Source of the DNA: Gemmatimonadales bacterium
Lineage (GTDB): Bacteria > Gemmatimonadota > Gemmatimonadetes > Gemmatimonadales > GWC2-71-9
Direction of reading: 5' to 3'
Length of the DNA stretch: 64,000 nt
Assembly (NCBI GenBank): GCA_035574255.1
Contig: DATLYZ010000102.1
Coordinates: forward strand, 47,194-111,193
In this document: positions 45,135-55,310 of the stretch, in pieces
How positions within the stretch are numbered: position 1 is the stretch's first letter
Layout: each line of letters begins with the position of its first letter
The notes under the pieces: generated by a model
What the model saw: only the letters and a program-made list of their open reading frames with translations
Database searches by the model: none
What the model was told of the DNA's origin: nothing
Translations under genes and position numbers: made by a program

Positions 45135-45422
45135 GTGAACAAGCCCGAGCTGGTGGCCGCGCTCGCCGCCCACCTCAAGACCAGCAAGGCCGTCGCCGCT
45201 CGCGCCGTGGATGCGCTGTTCGGCGCCGAGGGGATCATCGCTCTCGAGCTCAAGCGCGGGCGCAAGGTCCAGCTTTCGGGGTTCGGCGCCTTCGAAGCCC
45301 GCCGGCGCAAGGCGCGGTCGGTCCGGAACCCGCGGACCGGCCGGGCCATGCTGATCAAGGCGAGCATCGCGCCGGTCTTCAAGGCCGGGAAGGGGCTGAA
45401 GGCGATGTTGAATCGGCGGTGA
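45135..45422 (+). CDS. hup: HU family DNA-binding protein
   Basis: [10 protein letters not shown]...[28 protein letters not shown] start 7 nt after ACAGGAG. Confidence 0.9.
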
Positions 45423-45532: not shown

Positions 45533-46915
45533 TCACCGGCTCCCGTGCCGGTCCAGCCGGGCGACGACCCGGCGCCGGCGGATCGTCCGGCCGCTCAAGC
45601 GCCGACAGATGTCTTCAGCCTCGCCGGCCGGCAGTTCCACGAGCGAGTAGAGCTCGCGGATCTCGATCCGCCCGATCTTGGTCCGGTCCACGCCCACTTC
45701 CTTGGTGAGCGCGGCGACGATGTCGTTCGGCGACGCCTCGTCCTTGCGTCCGACCCCGATCCACACCTGGGCCACCCCGGGGCCGGCGGCCGGTTCCGCC
45801 CTGGCCGAACCGGCCAGGCGGTGGAGCGCGGCCGCCACCAGGGCGGGGTCGCGGCGTTCGAAGAGCGGCGCGAGCGCCACGAGCTCCGCGGTCAGGTCCT
45901 CCTGCTCGATGATCCGCTCGATCGCGGCTCGCCGGGCGCTGGCCTGGTCGCGCGCATCGTCGGGGGCCCCGGGCAGCCGGAGCGCCTGTTGTTTGCCCGC
46001 GATGCGCGCCACGTAGCCCAGCCCGTGGGGGGGGACCAGCAGCACGACCTCGCCGGCCGCGGCCAGTTGCGCGAGCCGCGCCGGGGCGGGCAGGTCCCAC
46101 GCCACAATCGCGGGGGCGGAGGGCGCGTCGCCCGTGACGACCGTGGTATCGCGGCCCAGCGGCACCGCTTCGGCCCGGTCCGCGCTGGCCCGGTCCGCCG
46201 CCCAGATCACGGCGTGGGCAGGATCCAGGACCTCGAGCAGCGCCGGGAGCGCGGTGCTGCGCTGGCCCCACGCCACCTGGACGGTGCGGACCGGGGGCCG
46301 GGCTGCGCTGCTGTCGGCCTGCACCAGCGGCCCGGTGGTGAAGGCCCGGCGCGCGTATCGCTCGACCAGGTCGGGCCGCGCCCCGGGGGTAGCCGGCTGG
46401 ATGATCCGGCAGCATTCGCGGGGCAGTTCCTGCATCAGGCTGGTGAGCAGCTCGTCGCTCGGATAGAGGTCGGGCCAGGCGAGCACGGCGTACTCGGCGG
46501 CCTCGAGCTTGAGGGCGCTGCGAGCAAGGAGGTCGGCGGCGGTCGAGGGGGCGGTGAGGAGGATCTCGACCCGCCCCTCGCGAAGCAGCCGGGTGGCGCG
46601 GGCCGCCCGGTAGGCCACGTGCGCGCGGTGCCCGGCCGCCTCGGCAAGGGGGAGCAACACGTCCGCCCACTCCGCGAGTGCCGGCGCCGGGGCGAGGATC
46701 AGGGCGCGCAGGCCGCCCGGGGTGAGCCCGCTCACGAGACCGGCGAGGGCTGGCGCGGCGTAGCGGGCTGCGGGCGGTACCGCGAGGACCAGGTTGGTCC
46801 CCCGCGCGGCACCGGACGCCTGCTCGCGCGGGCCCGCGTCGTCGGCGGTGTATCCCCAGGCCTCGAGCAGGGACGCCACCGGGGGGACGAGGTGGAGCTC
46901 GGTGAGGCCCGGCAT
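45533..46915 (-). CDS. DEAD-box-helicase-like protein with degenerate catalytic motifs and an intact C-terminal DbpA-type RNA-binding domain
   Basis: Collinear with the DEAD-box layout, but motif I is AVPPAARY, Ia APAPALA, Ib APST, II AWPD, III PAT and VI PPHGLGYVARIAG. The C-terminus VWIGVGRKDEASPNDIVAALTKEVGVDRTKIGRIEI is DbpA-like. Confidence 0.7.
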   Translation of the reverse strand: MPGLTELHLVPPVASLLEAWGYTADDAGPREQASGAARGTNLVLAVPPAARYAAPALAGLVSGLTPGGLRALILAPAPALAEWADVLLPLAEAAGHRAHVAYRAARATRLLREGRVEILLTAPSTAADLLARSALKLEAAEYAVLAWPDLYPSDELLTSLMQELPRECCRIIQPATPGARPDLVERYARRAFTTGPLVQADSSAARPPVRTVQVAWGQRSTALPALLEVLDPAHAVIWAADRASADRAEAVPLGRDTTVVTGDAPSAPAIVAWDLPAPARLAQLAAAGEVVLLVPPHGLGYVARIAGKQQALRLPGAPDDARDQASARRAAIERIIEQEDLTAELVALAPLFERRDPALVAAALHRLAGSARAEPAAGPGVAQVWIGVGRKDEASPNDIVAALTKEVGVDRTKIGRIEIRELYSLVELPAGEAEDICRRLSGRTIRRRRVVARLDRHGSR

Positions 46916-47053
46916 GCGGCGATCTCCATCGGTGCGCTGTGCCGCGGGCGGGACTGGCAACGCCACCCGCAGCCGACCAAGGCGTCTCGGAAGCCCGGGA
47001 TCGCTGCTCCCGGTCCCGCCGCGAAAGTAGTCGAGGACCTGATCGGAAGCCAG

Positions 47054-47082
47054 TTGACATCACGCGCCGGGGTGGGGACCTT
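47054..47082 (+). promoter_or_regulatory. promoter candidate TTGACA-N17-GACCTT upstream of the aminotransferase / nurA-herA-mre11-rad50 gene string
   Basis: Read directly; about 77 nt upstream of ATG 47159. Confidence 0.4.
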
Positions 47083-47158
47083 TGAGCGTCCTCGCGGGGC
47101 GTGGCGGTATCTCACCGGGCGTCCTCCCACGGTTTTCCAGTTGCGCGCTGCAGGTTCC

Positions 47159-48409
47159 ATGACCGATCCGCTTTCACCGAATCTGGCCCATCTGCGGCCC
47201 TCCGAGACCGTCGCCATCAGCAACGAGACCAGGCGCCGCCGCGCGCAGGGGGAGGATGTGCTGGACCTGAGCGTGGGGGAGCCGGATTTCGACACCCCGG
47301 GGCCGGTGGCGGAGGCGGGGATCCAGGCCATTCGGAAGGGGATGACCCGCTACCCTCCGAACATCGGGATCTTGGAGCTCCGGAGCGCGATGGCGCGCCA
47401 TCTCTCGCTCCTGTCAGGCGGGCGGCCGGTCAATCCGGACCAGTTCGTGGTGAGTTCGGGGTCCAAGCAGGCGATTTTCAACGCCTGTTTCGCGCTGTTC
47501 GGTCCCAAGGACAAGGTGCTGGTGCCGGCGCCCGCCTGGGTCTCGTATCCCCAGCTCGTGCATCTCTGCCGGGCGGAGCCGGTCATGGTGCCGGGCGATG
47601 CCGAGTGGGGGCTCAAGGTGAGCGTGGACGACCTGGAGCGGCGCACCGACAAGCTGGTGCGGGGGCTCATCCTGTGCTCCCCCTGCAACCCGACCGGGGC
47701 GACCTATTCGGCCGCGGAGATCCGGGCGATCGCCGAGTGGGCCCGGCGCCGCCAGGTCTGGATCATCGCGGACGAGATCTACCGCCGGATCTATTATGGC
47801 GACGGCCCCGCGCCCTCGTTCCTCGATCTGCCCGACGAGTATCTGGAGCGGACGGTCCTCATCTACGGCGCGAGCAAGGCGTACGCCATGACGGGCTGGC
47901 GGATCGGCGCCGCGCTGGCGCCGCTCCCGGTCGCGAAGGCCATCGCCGCGCTCCAGTCCCACACCACCACCGGAGCCAACCATCCGGCGCAGTGGGCGGC
48001 GGCCACGGCGTTCAGCGACGAGCGGGTCGAGCAGGACGTGCAGCGGATGGTGGCCGCCTTCCGCCGCCGCCGCGACCGGGTGGTGGAGCGGTTCCGGAGC
48101 GAGGCGCCCGGGGTCGAATTCGTCGAGCCCACCGGGGCGTTCTACTTCTTCTTCCGGGTGGACGGCATGACGGCGGCGCGGGATCTCACGGGCACCGCGT
48201 TCTGCGAGCAGGCGATGGCGGCCGGCGTGGCCCTGGTGCCGGGAGCGGCCTTCGGCGACGATCGCTGGGTCCGGATGAGCTACGCCGTCTCCGACCGCGA
48301 GCTCGAGACCGCGCTGGACCGCATCCTGGGGCTTGTCAGGCGGCTCGGCGCCGGGGAGGGCGCCAGCCGGCCGGCTGGCACCGCTGCGACCCGGAGCCCG
48401 GCCCGGTGA
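47159..48409 (+). CDS. class I/II pyridoxal-phosphate-dependent aminotransferase (aspartate aminotransferase-like)
   Basis: LSVGEPDFDTP, SPCNPTGA and YGASKAYAMTGWRIG (PLP lysine). Only the last 416 aa of the 970-aa track ORF are homologous. Confidence 0.9.
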   Translation: MTDPLSPNLAHLRPSETVAISNETRRRRAQGEDVLDLSVGEPDFDTPGPVAEAGIQAIRKGMTRYPPNIGILELRSAMARHLSLLSGGRPVNPDQFVVSSGSKQAIFNACFALFGPKDKVLVPAPAWVSYPQLVHLCRAEPVMVPGDAEWGLKVSVDDLERRTDKLVRGLILCSPCNPTGATYSAAEIRAIAEWARRRQVWIIADEIYRRIYYGDGPAPSFLDLPDEYLERTVLIYGASKAYAMTGWRIGAALAPLPVAKAIAALQSHTTTGANHPAQWAAATAFSDERVEQDVQRMVAAFRRRRDRVVERFRSEAPGVEFVEPTGAFYFFFRVDGMTAARDLTGTAFCEQAMAAGVALVPGAAFGDDRWVRMSYAVSDRELETALDRILGLVRRLGAGEGASRPAGTAATRSPAR

Positions 48410-48443
48410 GCCGCGCGGCGGCGGAGGGACCCCCGTGGGCACG

Positions 48444-49367
48444 ATGACCTGGACCCGGATGCGGCGCGCCGTGGCCGCCCGGGGATTCACGCCGGCCACC
48501 TGGATTCCCGCAGCCAGCGAGGGCCGGGCCGAAGAGGCCACCATCCAGCCGGCCCGCCTGCTCGAGGACCTGCCGCTCTCCGGGCGCGCGGTCGGACGTC
48601 CCGAGCCGTGGCCCGGCGTGGTCGCGTTCCTCGACGGCACCCAGCGCTACGAAGTCATGGCCTATGCCGATTCCACCCCGGTGGTGGTGGCGGAGATCGG
48701 CGCGGCGGTGCTGGAACGGCGCGAGCGCCGGCTCCGCCTGGCCCTGGCCGAGCGGCGCCGCCTGATCGTCGCCCGGCCGGAGGCGCTGGCCCGCCTCGAA
48801 GGCACCGCCGAGGGCCACGAGACGATCGCCCTCCCCGACGAGGGCCCCGTCCATCCGGTGCGCGACTTCCAGCTCGCCCGCCGAGCGGTGGACCAGGCCC
48901 GGGGCCGGCTGGAGGTCGAGGTGGGACGGCGTTACCGGGCCCGCTCCGACGCCTGGCTGATCGTGGACGGCCCGCTCACCGAGAGCCCTCAGTGGGCCCG
49001 CGACCCCCGCATGCTCGGGGTGAGCAAGAGCCACGCGACCCTCCCCTTCGGCGGCGAGGCGCTCGATCATTACCTCCGGCTCGCCGCGGGCCATCGCTCG
49101 CCGGTCTTCGAGCCGGCCGGTCATACCGTGACCCCAGTTCATTCCTGGGCGCTCCGGCTCTGGCCCTGGGAGGGCCGCGACGTGCTGCACGGGCTGGTCC
49201 GGATCGAGGCGGCCCCCACGCTCGACACCCTCGCGCAGGCCGACCAGCTCTCCCGCTGGCTCCTCGCCGAGCGGGCCCCCGTGTCCACGCCGGACCCCCG
49301 CTGGGACCGGCTGCTCTACGGCATTCACGCCGTGGAGCAGTACCTGAGGGCGAGTGCGGGACGGTGA
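48444..49367 (+). CDS. nurA: NurA-like nuclease
   Basis: Motifs AFLDGTQRY, WLIVDGPL and LGVSKSHA in the order I recall for NurA domains. Adjacent to the HerA-like ATPase. Confidence 0.6.
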   Translation: MTWTRMRRAVAARGFTPATWIPAASEGRAEEATIQPARLLEDLPLSGRAVGRPEPWPGVVAFLDGTQRYEVMAYADSTPVVVAEIGAAVLERRERRLRLALAERRRLIVARPEALARLEGTAEGHETIALPDEGPVHPVRDFQLARRAVDQARGRLEVEVGRRYRARSDAWLIVDGPLTESPQWARDPRMLGVSKSHATLPFGGEALDHYLRLAAGHRSPVFEPAGHTVTPVHSWALRLWPWEGRDVLHGLVRIEAAPTLDTLAQADQLSRWLLAERAPVSTPDPRWDRLLYGIHAVEQYLRASAGR

Positions 49368-49385
49368 ACGCCAGGACGGTGAACG
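49359..49385. repeat. direct repeat GGACGGTGAACG x2 (15-nt period) spanning the nurA stop codon
   Basis: 49359-49370 and 49374-49385 are identical. The reverse complement contains the GTTCACC heptad. Confidence 0.85.
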
Positions 49386-49547
49386 GGTCGTCCCGTGAGC
49401 CGAGCGGCGCCGCGCGCGGCGAGGGGTCGCCGGGTCGCTCGTGGCCCAGCGCCTGACCGCCGGGCACGGGCCCTGAGCGCCGACAGCCGAACCGTCCGCC
49501 GTTCCCCACGGCTTACCGCCATCCCTCCCTCCCCCTAGCTTTCCCGC

Positions 49548-51488
49548 ATGCCAGCCGCCCCGCCCCCGCCCATCGGGCGCGTCGTCGCCACCGAACTCAA
49601 GCCGTCCACGCCGCACCAGTTCCATTTCTGGACCGCGCGGGAGTCTCCGATCGGGATCGGCGCCATTGTCCGGGTGGAGGCGCCGGGCCGGACCGTGCTC
49701 GGGATCGTCACGGACGGGTTCGCCTACTCCGACCTGGTCACGCCGATCCACGACGTGATCGGGGCCGACGGCGATCCGGCGGTTGCGCTCGAGACCCCCA
49801 CCGAGCGGGCCGAGATCCGGCTGTACACCGCGGCGGTCCTGCGGCAGCTCCCCGAGGAGCCGCTCCAGCCGGTGCCGCTCGGCGCGGTGCACCTCGCCAC
49901 CGATGCGGACGTGGTCACCGCGCTCCGGATGGATGCGTTCACCCAGGTCGCCGAGCCGACCGGGATCCCCTGCGGGGTGTACGCGGCGGGCGGCCTGGAA
50001 GCCCCGGTGTACCTCGACGCCGATTTCCTCCTCGGTCCCGAGGCGGCTCACCTCAACATCACGGGCGTTTCGGGCCTCGCCACCAAGACCAGCGCGGTGG
50101 AGTTCCTGCTCGCGAGCATCTTCCAGACGTTCCCGGCCCACAAGGGGACGGTGGCAGCCCTCTGCTTCAACGTGAAGGGCCCCGACCTGCTGTTCCTCGA
50201 CCAGCCGGGCGCCCTGACCGACGAGGACCGCCGCCTGTACGCGCGGCTGGGCTTGAGGCCCGAGCCGTTTCGCGACGTCCGCTACTACGCCCCGTACAAG
50301 CCGGACGGGGTGAACCTCAACACGCTCCGGACCCACGAGGCGCTGGCGGCCTCGACCGTGCCGCTGGTCTGGGGCCTCCGCGAAGTGCTGGACTACGCGG
50401 AGGTGCTCCTCAACCGGGACGACGTGGATGCGAAGGCCGGGGCGTTCATTGATTTTCTGGGCGAGCGGGTGGTGGGGCGCGAATTCCGGGACGTGACCCT
50501 GGCCGACGAGGCCCTGACCGTGCGGAGCTTCGCCGACCTGGAGGGCTTCTTCCGCCGGATCTTCGAGTTCATGGAGACCCAGGGGCGGTCCAGCGAGGTC
50601 TGGCGCAACCACCATCTGGCCACCATCCGGAAAGTGCGCAATCGCCTGGGCAATATCAGCGTCCGGGCCAAGGGGCTGGTCACCGATGACGGCATCGCGA
50701 GCGACTTGCCCTGGGGCGCGTTCGCCGACCGGAGCGTCCACGTCATCGACGTGGCGGGCCTCGACCCGCTGGTGCAGGACCTGGTGTTCGCCCGCGTCGT
50801 CTCGAAGCTCCGCGAGCATCTCGAGCGCCGCGATCTCGGGGTGGACCATGTGGTGGTTTTCGTGGACGAGCTCAACAAGTATGCGCCCACCGATGGGCAG
50901 GACACCTACGTGCGGCGGATGCTGCTCGATCTCTCCGAGCGGGGGCGCTACCTGGGGCTGGTGCTGTTCTCGGCGCAGCAGTTCCGCTCCCAGGTGCTGC
51001 GCCGCGTGGTGGGCAACGCGGGTACGACCGTGTTCGGCCGCATGGACATGGACGAGCTGGCCCTCCCGGGTTACGCGACGCTCTCTCCCGCGACCAAGGC
51101 CAAGCTGGCGGCCCTCCCCAAGGGCGAGCTCATGATCCGCCACCCGCACTTCACCCAGCCGCTCTTCGTGCGTTTCCCCCGGCCCGCGGTGCTCCCCGGA
51201 CGCCTGGGCGTGGAGCGATTCCCCCCGGCGGCCGACCTCCCGTTCGCCCAGGCCGTGGCTCGCCAGCTCCGGGCCCTCGACCCGGGCATCACGACCCCCA
51301 AGGTGGAGCACCTGATCCACGGCCGCCGCGAGGACGACGTCCGGCGCGCCCTCCACGCCACCCGCCGGATGCGTCCCGAGAACGTGCTCGGCTTCTTCAC
51401 GAGCCAGCTCGGCCGGCGGGTGGAGCGCGAGGTGGCGCCCCCGCGGAGCATCCCCGCCCTCAAGCAGAGCGACGATCCGTACGGGTGA
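49548..51488 (+). CDS. herA: HerA/FtsK-superfamily ATPase (HAS-barrel-like N-terminus) with atypical P-loop
   Basis: N-terminal IGRVVATE...GAIVRVEA...VLGIVTDG barrel-like segment. P-loop position reads NITGVSGLATKTS. Walker B is HVVVFVDELNKYAP, followed by LVLFSAQQFRSQV. Confidence 0.65.
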   Translation: MPAAPPPPIGRVVATELKPSTPHQFHFWTARESPIGIGAIVRVEAPGRTVLGIVTDGFAYSDLVTPIHDVIGADGDPAVALETPTERAEIRLYTAAVLRQLPEEPLQPVPLGAVHLATDADVVTALRMDAFTQVAEPTGIPCGVYAAGGLEAPVYLDADFLLGPEAAHLNITGVSGLATKTSAVEFLLASIFQTFPAHKGTVAALCFNVKGPDLLFLDQPGALTDEDRRLYARLGLRPEPFRDVRYYAPYKPDGVNLNTLRTHEALAASTVPLVWGLREVLDYAEVLLNRDDVDAKAGAFIDFLGERVVGREFRDVTLADEALTVRSFADLEGFFRRIFEFMETQGRSSEVWRNHHLATIRKVRNRLGNISVRAKGLVTDDGIASDLPWGAFADRSVHVIDVAGLDPLVQDLVFARVVSKLREHLERRDLGVDHVVVFVDELNKYAPTDGQDTYVRRMLLDLSERGRYLGLVLFSAQQFRSQVLRRVVGNAGTTVFGRMDMDELALPGYATLSPATKAKLAALPKGELMIRHPHFTQPLFVRFPRPAVLPGRLGVERFPPAADLPFAQAVARQLRALDPGITTPKVEHLIHGRREDDVRRALHATRRMRPENVLGFFTSQLGRRVEREVAPPRSIPALKQSDDPYG

Positions 51489-51702
51489 TCGGGCGGCCGG
51501 GGTCCGTTGGGACCTCGGGGCAGAAGCCTGACCCGAGCGACCCGGAGGGGTGACCGGCTGCCCACCCGAAGAGGCCGGCCCGGCCTCGGCTCGCCGGGAG
51601 GAGGGTTGCCAGCGACCGGCGGCGCGGCGGTCCAAACGGCGCCTCCGGAGCGAGGGCGCCCGCCGCTCTGGCCGCGCCTCCCGCTCCGCTTACCTTTCTC
51701 CC

Positions 51703-52887
51703 GTGCGACTCGCGCATCTCGCCGATCTCCACCTCGGCTTCCGGCAATACCACCGGCAGACCCCGAACGGCATCAATCAGCGTGAGGCCGACGTGGCGCG
51801 CGCCTTTCGCCTCGCGGTGGACCAGGTCATCGCGGCGAAGCCCCAGGCGATCGTCGTGGCGGGCGACCTGTTCCACTCGGTGCGGCCCAGCAACCCCGCC
51901 ATCCTCTTCGCCTTCGCCCAGGTGCAGCGGCTCAGGGCCGCGCTGCCCGATACCCGGCTGGTCATCATCGCGGGGAACCACGACACGCCGCGCTCGACCG
52001 AGACGGGGTCCATCCTCGCGCTCTTTGCGAATCTGGGCGCCGATGTGGTGGCGGACCGGCCCAGGCGGCTCGCGTACCCGGAGCTGGATCTGAGCATTCT
52101 CGCGGTGCCGCACCTGGCGCTCGTCACCGGCCAGCGCCCGGTGCTCGAACCGGAAGGACGGGAGCGCTTCCAGGTGCTGCTGCTCCACGGCGAGGTGGCC
52201 GGGATCATCCCGGAGGACCGCTCCAGCCTGGAGTACGGCGGCGCCCAGATCCAGCCCGAAGAACTCGCCCGCGGCGGGTGGAGCTACGTTGCGCTGGGCC
52301 ACTATCATGTGCAGCGCGAGGTGGGGCCGCGCACCTGGTATGCGGGGGCGCTGGACTATGTGAGCCCCAATCCCTGGGGCGAGCTGCACGAGGAGGAACG
52401 GCTCCGGATCCCGGGCAAGGGCTGGCTGCTCGCCGATCTGGACACCGGCACGGTGACCCGCCAGCCGGTCCCGCCGGCCCGGCGGGTGATTGACCTGCCG
52501 CCCCTCGAGGGCGCCGGGCTCTCCGCGGCCGAACTCGACCAGCGGATCGCGGCGGCGATCGCAGCCGTCCCGGGCGGGATCCGGGACCAGATCGTGCGCC
52601 AGGTGGTCTGGAACGTGCTGCGCCCGGTGGGCCGCGAACTCAACCACTCGGCCATCCGGGCGTACAAGGCCGAGGCGCTGCATTATCACCTCGACCTGCG
52701 GCGCCCCGAACCCACCCGCGAGCCGGGGATCTCCGCCCCGGGCCGCCGCCAGACCCTCCCCGAGCTCGTGAGCCAGTTTCTCCGCCGCCGCGCCCTGCCG
52801 GCGGACCTCGACCGGGAGGCCTTCGTCCGGGCCGGCACGGAACTCATGGCCGAGGTCGAGCGGGAGTGGGCCGGGATGGAGGGCTGA
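51703..52887 (+). CDS. sbcD: Mre11/SbcD-type DNA repair exonuclease
   Basis: Phosphoesterase motifs LADLHLG, AGDLFH, AGNHD, LLLHG and LGHYH. GTG start at 51703. Confidence 0.85.
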   Translation: MRLAHLADLHLGFRQYHRQTPNGINQREADVARAFRLAVDQVIAAKPQAIVVAGDLFHSVRPSNPAILFAFAQVQRLRAALPDTRLVIIAGNHDTPRSTETGSILALFANLGADVVADRPRRLAYPELDLSILAVPHLALVTGQRPVLEPEGRERFQVLLLHGEVAGIIPEDRSSLEYGGAQIQPEELARGGWSYVALGHYHVQREVGPRTWYAGALDYVSPNPWGELHEEERLRIPGKGWLLADLDTGTVTRQPVPPARRVIDLPPLEGAGLSAAELDQRIAAAIAAVPGGIRDQIVRQVVWNVLRPVGRELNHSAIRAYKAEALHYHLDLRRPEPTREPGISAPGRRQTLPELVSQFLRRRALPADLDREAFVRAGTELMAEVEREWAGMEG

Positions 52888-55310
52888 TGCAGCTGGAGCG
52901 CCTTCGGCTCGTCAACTTCCGGCAGCACGAGGACACCGAGCTCGTGCTGGGCGCGGGGCTCACGGGGATCATCGGGCCGAACGGCTCGGGCAAGACCACG
53001 CTGCTCGAGGCGATCGCCTGGGCGCTCTACGGCAGTCAGGCGACCCGCGGCACCAAGGAGACGATCCGCCGCCGTGGCGCGGGGGCCCGGGCCCCGGTGC
53101 GGGTCGAGCTCGACTTCGTCCTCGGGCCGCACCGCTACCGGGTGGTCCGGTCCCTCAACACCGCCGAGCTGTACCAGGACCACGACTCGGCCCCAATCGC
53201 CCTGAGCCTGGAGGCGGTCACCGAGAAGATCACCCGGCTCCTCGGCATGACGCGCGAGGAGTTCTTCAATACCTACTTCACGGGACAGAAACAGCTTGCC
53301 GTGATGGCCGCGCTGGGCCCCAGCGATCGGGCCCAGTTTCTGTCGCGCGTCCTGGGCTACGAACGGCTCAAGGTCGCCCAGGAACGGCTGCGCGAACGGC
53401 GGACCGAGCTGCGGCTCCGGTTGCAGGCCCTGGAGTCGAGCCTCCCCTCGCTGGAGGAACTCGATCAGGCGGAAGCCAAGGCCCGCGAACGGCTCGAGGC
53501 GGCGCGGGCGGCCGAAGCCCGGGCGAAGGCCGCGGAACGGGCCGCCCAGGACCGGCTCGCCCAGGCGGAGCCTGCCTGGCGCGAGGCCCAGCAGGCCCGG
53601 GACCGGATGGCCGCGCTGGCGGCCGACCTCCGCCTCGCGGAGCACCGGGTGAGCGACGCGCGCGAAGCGTTCCAGCAGCTGGACCGCCGGCTGGTGGAGG
53701 CCAACGAAGCCCGACTCAAGCTCGAGACCCTTGCGGAGCACCTTGCCCCCCTGGATCGCCTCCGCCGGGAGCGGCAACACCTCGACGAGCTGGCCGAGGG
53801 GTACTCCCGGCGCCGGACTGCGGCGGGGCAGCTCGACGAGGCCCGGAACGCGCTCGCCGCGGTGCTGGACCGGGTGCGGCGCCTGCCGCCCGCGCACGCG
53901 CTCGAGGCGGCCCGGGAGCGGATGGAGGCGCTCGGGCGCCGGGTTCGGGAGCTGGGGGAGGCGATCGAGGAGCGGCGCGCCGCCTGGGTCCGGGACAAGA
54001 CCGACGCCGACACCCGGCTGGCAACGCTTCGCGAGCAATACCTCGAATTGAAGAAACAGCACGAGCGCATCACCCGGGCCGGCCCCGATGGCGTGTGTCC
54101 CACCTGCGCCCGGCCGCTGGGCGCCGAGTTCGCGAAGGTGCTGGAGCTGTTGGACCGGCAGCTTCAGGAGGTCCTCTTCAACGGCAACTTCTACAAGCAA
54201 CGGGCGGACCAGCTCGAGCATCCGCCGCCGGAGCTCCGGGACCTGGAGCGCGAGCGGGCGGAGGCGGAGAAGGCCTTTCAGGAGGCGACCCGGGAGTACG
54301 GCAGTCTCCAGGCGCAGGCCCGGGAAGGGCCAGGGCTGGAAGTCGAGCAGGCGCGGCTGGAGGGACGCATCCGGGAGCTCGAACACGTCCTGCGCGAAGC
54401 GCCGGACGGGTACGACCACGAGCGCCATCAGGAAGTGCGGCGGTTGCTCGAGCAGCTCGAGCCGATCGCGCTGGAGGCCGAGCGATTCCGCTACGCCGCG
54501 GAACAGGCCGGCGCCCTGGTGCACCAGGCCGAGGCGGCGGAGCGGGAACTCACCGAGCGCGAGGCCCGGGCCCGGGCGATTCGCGAGCAACTGCTGGCCC
54601 TGGGGTACTCGGAGGAGGCGTTCGCCAGGGCCCGAGAGGCCTTCGAGGCGGCCGAGCGCGCGCGGCGTGAGGCGGAGCTGGCGGGGGTGCGGGCCCGGGC
54701 CGAGGTGGGAGCGGCGGAGGAGGGAATGCGCCAGGTGGCGGCGCGCCGTGCGGAACGGGCTCGACGGGAAGCCGAGGCCAAACAGGCCGCGGCCGAACTC
54801 GCCCTCTACCAGGAACTCGACCGGGCGTTCTCCGATCTCCGGACCCATCTGAACCTTCAGCTCCGGCCCGATCTCTCGGAGCTGGCCAGCGGGTTCGTCC
54901 GCGACCTCACCAACGGCCGGTACAGCGAGATCGAACTGGACGAGGATTACGAGGCGACCCTGCTCGAGGGAGGCGAGCCGCGGCCGGTGATCTCGGGCGG
55001 CGAGGAGGACATTGCCAACCTGGCTCTGCGGCTCGCCATCAGCCAGATGATCGCGGACCGGGCGGGGCAGCCCCTCTCGCTCCTGGTGCTGGACGAGATC
55101 TTCGGGTCGCTCGACGAGGAGCGGCGCAACGCCGTGCTCGACCTGCTCAGGAGCCTGGCGGACCGTTTTCCGCAGGTGATCCTCATCACGCACATCGAGG
55201 CGGTGCGGGAGGGATTCGACCGCGTGATCCGGGTGGATTTCGACGCCGAGCGGGGTGCCGCGCGGGTGCGGGACGAGGCGCCGGGAGCGCTGGATGGCCT
55301 GGCTGCCTGA
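52887..55310 (+). CDS. sbcC: Rad50/SbcC-type SMC-like ATPase with CxxC zinc hook
   Basis: Walker A GPNGSGKTT, long coiled coils, central GVCPTCARPLG hook, signature SGGEEDIANLALRLA and Walker B LLVLDEIFGSLD. TGATG overlap with the upstream gene. Confidence 0.85.
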   Translation: MQLERLRLVNFRQHEDTELVLGAGLTGIIGPNGSGKTTLLEAIAWALYGSQATRGTKETIRRRGAGARAPVRVELDFVLGPHRYRVVRSLNTAELYQDHDSAPIALSLEAVTEKITRLLGMTREEFFNTYFTGQKQLAVMAALGPSDRAQFLSRVLGYERLKVAQERLRERRTELRLRLQALESSLPSLEELDQAEAKARERLEAARAAEARAKAAERAAQDRLAQAEPAWREAQQARDRMAALAADLRLAEHRVSDAREAFQQLDRRLVEANEARLKLETLAEHLAPLDRLRRERQHLDELAEGYSRRRTAAGQLDEARNALAAVLDRVRRLPPAHALEAARERMEALGRRVRELGEAIEERRAAWVRDKTDADTRLATLREQYLELKKQHERITRAGPDGVCPTCARPLGAEFAKVLELLDRQLQEVLFNGNFYKQRADQLEHPPPELRDLERERAEAEKAFQEATREYGSLQAQAREGPGLEVEQARLEGRIRELEHVLREAPDGYDHERHQEVRRLLEQLEPIALEAERFRYAAEQAGALVHQAEAAERELTEREARARAIREQLLALGYSEEAFARAREAFEAAERARREAELAGVRARAEVGAAEEGMRQVAARRAERARREAEAKQAAAELALYQELDRAFSDLRTHLNLQLRPDLSELASGFVRDLTNGRYSEIELDEDYEATLLEGGEPRPVISGGEEDIANLALRLAISQMIADRAGQPLSLLVLDEIFGSLDEERRNAVLDLLRSLADRFPQVILITHIEAVREGFDRVIRVDFDAERGAARVRDEAPGALDGLAA

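Follow-up and report, generated by a model that had tools for sequence, protein, structure and literature searches.

Within a stretch of 64,000 nucleotides from a Gemmatimonadales bacterium (GenBank assembly GCA_035574255.1, contig DATLYZ010000102.1, positions 47,194 to 111,193), to which we refer as the window, a minus-strand gene at 45533..46915 encodes a protein of 460 residues plus stop that is homologous over its whole length to the DEAD-box RNA helicases, and in which none of the catalytic motifs of these enzymes survives. The protein, here called the pseudo-helicase, consists of two degenerate RecA-like domains, a segment resembling the dimerisation domain (DD) of DeaD and CshA, and, at the C terminus, an RNA-binding domain (RBD) of the DbpA family. 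Across the phylum Gemmatimonadota, purifying selection acts on each of the four domains. Judging from sequence comparison, we consider it reasonably probable that the protein is an ATP-independent, probably dimeric RNA-binding scaffold, anchored by its RBD and derived from a helicase of the DeaD/CshA/Hera type.

The helicase ancestry is largely hidden from single-sequence searches. In Pfam, the protein gave PF03880 (DbpA, residues 385-453) as the sole match, with no match to DEAD or Helicase_C. In NCBIfam, only the RBD region matched the DbpA and DeaD equivalogs, far below threshold, and phmmer against the PDB returned marginal matches, including a faint one to DDX52. Since these searches exposed only the RBD and the faint DDX52 signal, family profiles were needed to prove the homology of the core; with them, the first 310 residues were unambiguously homologous with the core of DEAD-box proteins. 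A HMMER profile of 32 family sequences matched CshA (E 5e-11) and eIF4A (E 3.5e-7). A 61-sequence profile matched DbpA (E 2.4e-28), Hera (E 1e-19) and CshA (E 3.3e-25), the last in one alignment (query 3-371, CshA 3-425) that spans the DD. With hhalign, the family aligned with E. coli DeaD over residues 2-454 (99.45%, E 4.7e-22, 463 columns) and with E. coli DbpA (98.6%, E 5e-16). An AlphaFold2 model built on the family alignment reached a mean pLDDT of 87.3, and a Foldseek search of the PDB with this model placed full-length DbpA at the top (E 1.7e-20), followed by CshA, eIF4A, Dhh1 and Hera; there were 411 matches at E<=0.001, of which the best 50 are all DEAD-box proteins. Weak PF00270 matches were found in 13 of the 61 family members. 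Profile HMMs, hhalign and Foldseek thus agree on two RecA-like domains of DEAD-box descent and fold. An initial annotation of this DNA, made from the letters alone, had described the protein as collinear with DEAD-box helicases and proposed an alignment to DeaD and DbpA as a check; the collinearity proved statistically solid, and the homology extends over the whole length. The same annotation labelled the protein DbpA-type. The label suits the RBD, which is the Pfam DbpA domain, but the overall architecture fits DeaD, CshA and Hera better than DbpA and YxiN. The DbpA equivalog model NF008744 gave 38.9 bits against a cut-off of 524, with the RBD region alone matching, and no curated NCBIfam model covers the family. 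On these alignments, the layout of core, DD-like segment and RBD is DeaD/CshA/Hera-like rather than DbpA/YxiN-like, and so is the descent that we assign to the protein.

The catalytic positions were compared one by one. The glutamine of the Q motif is lost in the hhalign alignment. At motif I, HMMER puts a 4-residue deletion exactly at G-S-G-K (PP....AARY), and the flanking Y52 and P55 align with F60 and P63 in the 'GKTAAFxLP' of DeaD. Motif Ia reads APAPALA instead of PTRELA, motif Ib TAPST instead of GTPGR, and motif II AWPD instead of DEAD, where the family consensus is AWPE, with AWAD in the Gemmatimonadaceae type. Motif III is PAT instead of SAT, in columns that are not conserved in the family, and the motif IV position is occupied by AVIWAAD. 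The RecA2-like domain is about 38 residues short, owing to a 26-residue gap at beta3/alpha3 and the loss of the ARGxD loop (motif V) and of the motif VI loop; it keeps IVAWDLP, the counterpart of the VVNYDIP strand. The motif VI position is APARLAQLAAAG (aa 277-288), from which about 6 residues including the arginine loop (HRxGRxxR) are deleted. DSSP assignment of the AlphaFold2 model fits a RecA2 domain one beta-alpha unit short, and PF00271 (Helicase_C) was found neither among the precomputed domains of some 240 relatives nor in a scan of 61 members. The attributes of a DEAD-box enzyme, namely Walker A, the DEAD of motif II, and motifs III, V and VI with a full Helicase_C domain, are therefore all missing. 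The initial annotation had stated that every catalytic motif was replaced, and its five strings AVPPAARY, APAPALA, APST, AWPD and PAT do lie at the aligned positions of motifs I, Ia, Ib, II and III. None of the motifs survives, as it had claimed, but some of them are deleted and not merely substituted. Motif I, whose string was correctly placed, is not a one-to-one substitution, the loop being 4 residues shorter. Motif VI is indeed gone, but the string then assigned to it was misplaced: PPHGLGYVARIAG (aa 295-307) forms the helix that follows strand beta6. The shortening of RecA2 and the DD-like segment (aa 313-372) had both been missed.

In the DD-like segment, the pseudo-helicase sequence APLFERRDPALVAAALHRL aligns with LLEEHDSVTIVAACLKML of CshA and EELDLETLAAALLKMAQ of DeaD; the continuous alignment with DeaD includes ELDLETLAAALLKMAQG. 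The DD motif xxDxxxxAAALLxxL is kept, as in the DeaD/CshA/Hera group. The segment has the lowest pLDDT of the model (61-82), which is what folding upon dimerisation might give. In Hera, the DD mediates a stable dimer, as described in PMC11850223.

The RBD matches PF03880 over positions 3-71 of the 72 in the profile, with E 1.4e-19 and 70.3 bits where the gathering cut-off is 25.6, and the same domain was found in 61 of 61 sampled family members. In alignments to the solved RBDs of DbpA, DeaD and YxiN, it keeps the GxG(K/R)KD turn and, as I414-G415-R416-I417, the IGxI strand, in which G415 is at least 90% conserved. I414, G415 and I417 align with I436, G437 and I439 of YxiN and with V461, G462 and V464 of Hera. 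In the RNA complexes of YxiN and Hera, this strand recognises a guanine by three hydrogen bonds from its backbone amides, which PMC3695512 presents as the sole feature common to the two complexes. K405 occupies the position of YxiN K427. The domain ends in a basic RRRR, and many orthologs carry extra Arg-rich tails, like Hera. With a net charge of +3, the RBD is the only basic domain, those of the pseudo-core having -2 and -1. A new basic RNA-binding face on the core was considered and dropped, the core being near neutral by domain charge. The good conservation of the RBD noted in the initial annotation is confirmed by the Pfam match, its presence in every sampled member and a dN/dS of 0.04-0.10.

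The loss of the motifs is shared by a large family. A first search yielded 569 relatives; the best 120 of these 569 are all full length (460-512 aa), 46-92% identical to the pseudo-helicase, and carry PF03880 only. An exhaustive search of 50%-identity representatives gave 151 clusters at E<1e-30, down to 29% identity. In a scan of GTDB species genomes, at least 267 genomes encode a relative; the number is a minimum, as the scan relied on two peptide patterns, each specific to a subfamily. The best 80 of the 267 are 80 different assemblies, all from Gemmatimonadota, and all organism-labelled matches belong to the same phylum. By regular expression, Walker A, DEAD, ARGxD or HRxGRxxR was found in its proper place in 0 of the 394 family proteins fetched, and none of them has GK[ST] in the core. 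A few matches of these patterns were considered as catalytic intermediates and rejected as chance occurrences in mis-called N-termini, N-terminal extensions or R/G-rich tails.

When a divergent member of 624 residues served as the seed of a second search, the result was a Gemmatimonadaceae-labelled subfamily with a full-length P-loop region devoid of GKT ('lPHDw..i..fL.P'), 'AWaD', 'LYDlP' and a weak PF00270 match. From its sequence, this subfamily represents a partial evolutionary intermediate, less degenerate, yet still dead; the RecA2 trimming is common to all subfamilies. Its members also have C-terminal tails of 80-200 residues, low-complexity and rich in R, G, D and E, which are absent from the window protein (P0240, P0246, P0259, P0231 and others; locus L088, 6001..7875). 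These tails resemble those of DeaD/CsdA-type helicases.

Gene order links the relatives to the window. Three loci, whose protein is 92%, 77% and 56% identical, show the gene order of the window: aminotransferase (divergent), pseudo-helicase, HU (convergent), thymidine kinase, CoaE, GcvH and GcvP. At a locus of 33% identity, the side from HU through thymidine kinase, CoaE and GcvH to GcvP is kept and the aminotransferase lies two genes further upstream; at one of 37% identity, the divergent aminotransferase and the thymidine kinase are kept with no HU between, and the contig ends shortly after. Synteny down to 33% identity indicates that the relatives are orthologs.

Selection was assessed by Nei-Gojobori dN/dS against the two closest orthologs, which are unsaturated (dS 0.27 and 0.75). 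The overall values of 0.17 and 0.20 answer the dN/dS check proposed in the initial annotation in favour of purifying selection, and the RBD is the most constrained domain. Residue conservation was examined in a 235-sequence family alignment and in a cross-subfamily alignment of 61 sequences. In the former, the residues that replaced the catalytic ones are strongly conserved: P47 (97%) and P48 (92%) at the P-loop, W147 (94%) and P148 (91%) at motif II. So are three arginines, R106 (93%), R109 (89%) and R170 (99%), and, on the RecA2 side, W238 (92%), D274 (90%) and P276 (99%). Taken together, the replacement stretches PP, AWPE, QR and WDLP show 90-99% conservation. Position 149, the last of the DEAD motif, is D or E (83% E). 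P47, R170 and R186 are invariant even across subfamilies. Since the replacement residues are among the most conserved of the family, the former active site is under a new constraint rather than relaxed, and these residues point to a gained function.

In DEAD-box proteins, ATP is bound and hydrolysed with the help of motifs I, II and VI, and RNA is bound through motifs Ia, Ib, IV and V; ATP-dependent closure creates the bipartite RNA-binding site of these proteins. From these roles we infer that the pseudo-helicase is unable to undergo ATP-dependent closure. ATP independence is strongly implied, because the Walker A lysine, the acidic pair of DEAD and the arginine fingers are absent and the loops are physically deleted. 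The protein would thus neither bind nor hydrolyse ATP in the DEAD-box manner, and would have no ATP-driven cycle of an open and closed clamp. Its RBD would anchor it to structured RNA, presumably at a single-stranded guanine beside a hairpin, as the RBDs of YxiN, DbpA and Hera do. Homodimerisation through the DD-like segment could allow two RBDs to tether or hold two RNA segments, and the frozen, re-purposed RecA-like core may act as a rigid scaffold or docking surface. To judge by DeaD, CshA and DbpA, the most likely arena would be the maturation of large-subunit rRNA, or else the chaperoning and turnover of RNA in general. This possible role in ribosome assembly or as an RNA chaperone is the weakest step.

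Several observations weigh against the scaffold proposal. ATP independence, RNA binding and dimerisation are all inferred from sequence. PF25399 (DeaD_dimer) matched only weakly, in 7 of 61 members with a best E of 9.5e-4 (single-sequence matches). The pseudo-core is not basic, and its RNA-contact motifs Ia, GG, Ib, IV and V are degenerate or deleted, so that the core may not touch RNA. The neighbouring genes (HU, thymidine kinase, CoaE, glycine cleavage, aminotransferase) give no link to ribosome biogenesis, and nothing among them speaks against such a role either. Finally, helicase-dead E. coli DbpA that still binds its site is dominant-negative: it stalls 50S assembly and a 45S intermediate accumulates (PMC4911913). 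For a naturally dead protein bound at this site, a different logic, such as that of a placeholder or checkpoint, would thus be required, or another RNA target. One may speculate, although we regard this elaborate version as doubtful, that Gemmatimonadota turned their helicase of the DeaD/CshA type into a factor that is obligately non-enzymatic: a dimer, anchored by its RBD, that serves as a placeholder or checkpoint on large subunits that are immature or idle, at a site of the 23S rRNA close to the peptidyl-transferase centre. Its release would require no ATP hydrolysis of its own, and the invariant Pro-Pro, Trp-Pro and Arg residues would form a new pocket for a ligand or partner. If true, this would be the counterpart of the dominant-negative, helicase-dead DbpA that arose naturally and under selection. 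The initial annotation had called the pseudo-helicase a paralog; it may instead be the converted DeaD/CshA ortholog of the lineage. A motif scan of the 64-kb window detected no canonical DEAD-box helicase, and when some 1 Mb of retrieved loci from Gemmatimonadota was searched by tblastn with the core of DbpA, the sole match was a member of the pseudo-helicase family. Searches of the literature were uninformative on this point.

Could the gene simply be broken, or not a gene at all? All catalytic motifs are gone, and at 72% G+C long spurious open reading frames (ORFs) are common, such as one of 970 residues on the opposite strand. Such a reading is excluded by the conservation data: full-length ORFs are intact in hundreds of genomes, dN/dS is about 0.2 or lower in every domain, synteny is conserved, and there are a confident AlphaFold2 model, a significant Pfam RBD and a Shine-Dalgarno sequence. 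Orthologs with intact motifs, which the initial annotation had named as a sign of a pseudogene, were looked for and numbered 0 of 394, and hundreds of orthologs with the same losses answer its question of conserved loss versus recent decay in favour of the former. Judging from this distribution, the motif loss is ancient and conserved, and not recent decay. Conservation across Gemmatimonadota thus argues for a functional pseudo-helicase, in which a helicase fold, loss of the catalytic motifs and retention under purifying selection are combined. A different objection is that the protein might still bind or hydrolyse a nucleotide via non-canonical residues. Some pseudo-enzymes retain ligand binding, the last DEAD position remains acidic (D/E149), and the RecA1 sequence has the conserved arginines R106, R109, R170 and R186. 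We find such a cryptic NTPase very improbable, given that GK[ST] is missing from the core of all 394 proteins, the P-loop is 4 residues shorter in the subfamily of the window protein, Trp-Pro stands in place of the Mg-binding, water-activating Asp-Glu, motif V and the arginine-finger loop of motif VI are deleted, and the Q-motif glutamine is lost. The deletions at the catalytic loops in particular make this activity unlikely.

A more serious alternative, plausible in our view though less probable than the scaffold, is that the protein works mainly as an adaptor or regulator. The dead core or the DD could dock on an active DEAD-box helicase, as a DD heterodimer, or on an RNase or degradosome-type complex; or the protein could compete for the RNA site of the RBD and so tune an active helicase. 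DEAD-box RecA-like domains commonly serve as protein docking sites, as in eIF4A with MIF4G and RhlB with RNase E. The strong conservation of the new residues at the former catalytic sites suggests that a new surface for binding has arisen there, the pseudo-core is not basic, and the DD homology would suit a heterodimer. Competition has a precedent in helicase-dead DbpA, which competes in vivo (PMC4911913). However, no partner gene is co-located in the loci examined, where the gene is monocistronic, and no canonical helicase that could be the partner turned up in the window or in the 1 Mb or so of loci searched. Moreover, the RBD is the most constrained domain, from which it follows that RNA binding stays central, as it is in the RBD-anchored scaffold that we favour.

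Among known systems, the closest are the dimeric helicases DeaD/CsdA of E. coli, CshA of Geobacillus and Bacillus, and Hera of Thermus, which combine the core, a DD and a DbpA-family RBD. The pseudo-helicase is collinear with them throughout and has the same fold, but it lacks their ATPase motifs, its P-loop is shortened, its RecA2 domain is about 38 residues short, and it has no Helicase_C match. With these losses, the protein cannot belong to that enzyme family as a working member. E. coli DbpA and B. subtilis YxiN share with it the Pfam DbpA RBD, the basic residue at the K427 position and the IGxI strand. They are monomeric, specific for hairpin 92 of 23S rRNA and without a DD; DbpA is an active ATPase, and its hhalign match is weaker than that of DeaD (5e-16 against 4.7e-22). 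A functional parallel is Utp25/Def, a DEAD-box pseudohelicase of the eukaryotic SSU processome, in which the DEAD-box fold is likewise conserved with vestigial motifs and presumably functions without catalysis. Utp25 has been proposed as a structural factor of the ribonucleoprotein, and its authors call it the first fully validated pseudohelicase (PMC9539457). It has an N-terminal intrinsically disordered region and neither a DbpA RBD nor a DD, and it belongs to an unrelated lineage with a different domain set. Utp25 retains motif Ia, partial Q, IV, V and VI motifs and full-size RecA domains, whereas RecA2 is trimmed and the P-loop deleted in the pseudo-helicase; there is no evidence of common descent of the two losses. 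PriA of Deinococcus radiodurans (PMC4504706) is likewise a bacterial SF2 helicase homolog that naturally lost its helicase motifs and was retained in its lineage, but as a member of the PriA family it acts in the restart of DNA replication; it is no DEAD-box protein and lacks an RBD.

Our search of full-text literature on pseudohelicases and on helicases of Gemmatimonadetes and Gemmatimonas found no description of a bacterial DEAD-box pseudohelicase, so that a phylum-wide one is apparently undescribed so far. The only trace found is a sentence of Lopez-Ramirez et al. (2011), stating as data not shown that Gemmatimonas aurantiaca has a DbpA RBD outside a DEAD-Helicase_C protein (PMC3093544); the degenerate core is not recognised there. 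Three Treponema species likewise have DbpA-RBD genes outside DEAD-Helicase_C proteins (PMC3093544), which might represent a separate instance of proteins that have the RBD alone or a degenerate core.

Features of the pseudo-helicase gene and its surroundings, in window coordinates; dN/dS is the range against the two closest orthologs
Feature	Position	Strand	Basis	dN/dS
Pseudo-helicase CDS	45533..46915	-	ORF list; ortholog N-termini; translation; family searches	
Shine-Dalgarno-like GGAG	46924..46927	-	8 nt upstream of ATG; read directly; conserved in L001 and L003	
RecA1-like domain (aa 1-200), degenerate Q, I, Ia, Ib, II and III positions	46316..46915	-	HMMER against CshA, Hera, DeaD and eIF4A N-domains; hhalign; AlphaFold2 pLDDT 83-98	0.21-0.25
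P-loop remnant AVPPAARYA (aa 45-53); lacks Gly-Lys-Thr and 4 residues relative to AxTGSGKT	46757..46783	-	HMMER alignment	
Motif II position AWPD (aa 146-149) replacing DEAD	46469..46480	-	alignment; hhalign	
Reduced RecA2-like domain (aa 201-312)	45980..46315	-	hhalign against DeaD; HMMER against CshA and Hera; DSSP of model; no PF00271 on family proteins	0.18-0.22
DeaD/CshA-type DD-like three-helix segment (aa 313-372)	45800..45979	-	continuous alignment to CshA and DeaD DD; family motif APLFERxDPxxVAAAL	0.16-0.22
DbpA-family RBD (aa 385-453); GxGRKD, IGRI, basic C-terminal RRRR	45557..45763	-	Pfam PF03880; alignments to DbpA, DeaD and YxiN RBDs; dN/dS	0.04-0.10
HU-family DNA-binding protein gene	45135..45422	+	PF00216 E 3e-25; converges on pseudo-helicase 3' end	
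Conserved intergenic element ATGTCAACTGG ... TACTTTCG	47022..47060	-	invariant in window, L001, L003 and L004	

The gene limits drawn in the initial annotation agree with the translation and the ortholog starts. The enclosing open frame in the ORF list (45533..46966, minus strand, 477 codons) starts with GTG. This start was dropped. The true one is the ATG at 46915, an internal Met at which all orthologs have their N-terminus (MPGL/MSGL...) and 8 nt upstream of which lies GGAG. The G+C content of about 72% applies to the window as a whole, and overlapping long ORFs in other frames and on the other strand, among them the 970-residue one on the plus strand, are compositional artefacts.

Upstream, the intergenic region 46916..47158 separates the pseudo-helicase from the divergent aminotransferase gene, whose ATG is at 47159 on the plus strand. 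It contains a conserved element, ATGTCAACTGG followed about 20 nt on by TAC(T/C)TTC, which is invariant even in L004, a locus that encodes an ortholog of just 56% protein identity. The element may be a candidate promoter or operator shared with the aminotransferase gene. No sigma-70 consensus was detected, and promoter and terminator consensus scans were negative. On the other side, no terminator-like hairpin was found between the pseudo-helicase and HU genes in the window. Most ortholog loci examined have the convergent HU gene, but L088, the locus of Gemmatimonadaceae type, lacks it; the HU gene as called in L004 (9424..9795) overlaps the 3' end of the pseudo-helicase gene by 68 nt. An Rfam scan of the whole window gave no family at gathering score, and a PADLOC defence-system scan of the pseudo-helicase gave no match.

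Downstream of the aminotransferase, a four-gene cluster occupies 48333..55310 on the plus strand. It comprises a 344-residue ORF without a family match, a 646-residue ORF with weak HAS-barrel/HerA-like signals (PF09378 E 2.4e-3; PADLOC HerA 1.3e-3, mads_8 4e-7), an SbcD/Mre11-like Metallophos protein and an SbcC/Rad50-like SMC_N protein. The two unannotated genes also occur in L001, L003 and L004, followed by Metallophos and SMC_N in L001 and by Metallophos in L003. From these matches, the cluster looks like a bacterial end-processing cluster of a HerA-like, perhaps NurA-associated, and Mre11/Rad50 type.

DEAD-box proteins are defined by ATP-gated clamping of RNA, and naturally dead members are rare. 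In databases, members of the present family appear as 'DbpA RNA binding domain-containing protein' or, wrongly, as 'ATP-dependent RNA helicase DeaD' or 'DEAD/DEAH box helicase', and our finding corrects this widespread mis-annotation as helicases. The family amounts to a natural experiment, in which a whole phylum has for a very long time preserved the shape of a helicase, together with its dimerisation module and RNA-targeting domain, while the motor was deleted. It shows which parts of a DeaD/CshA-type helicase stay useful without ATP, and it offers a test of whether RBD tethering alone can serve the ribosome or RNA metabolism.

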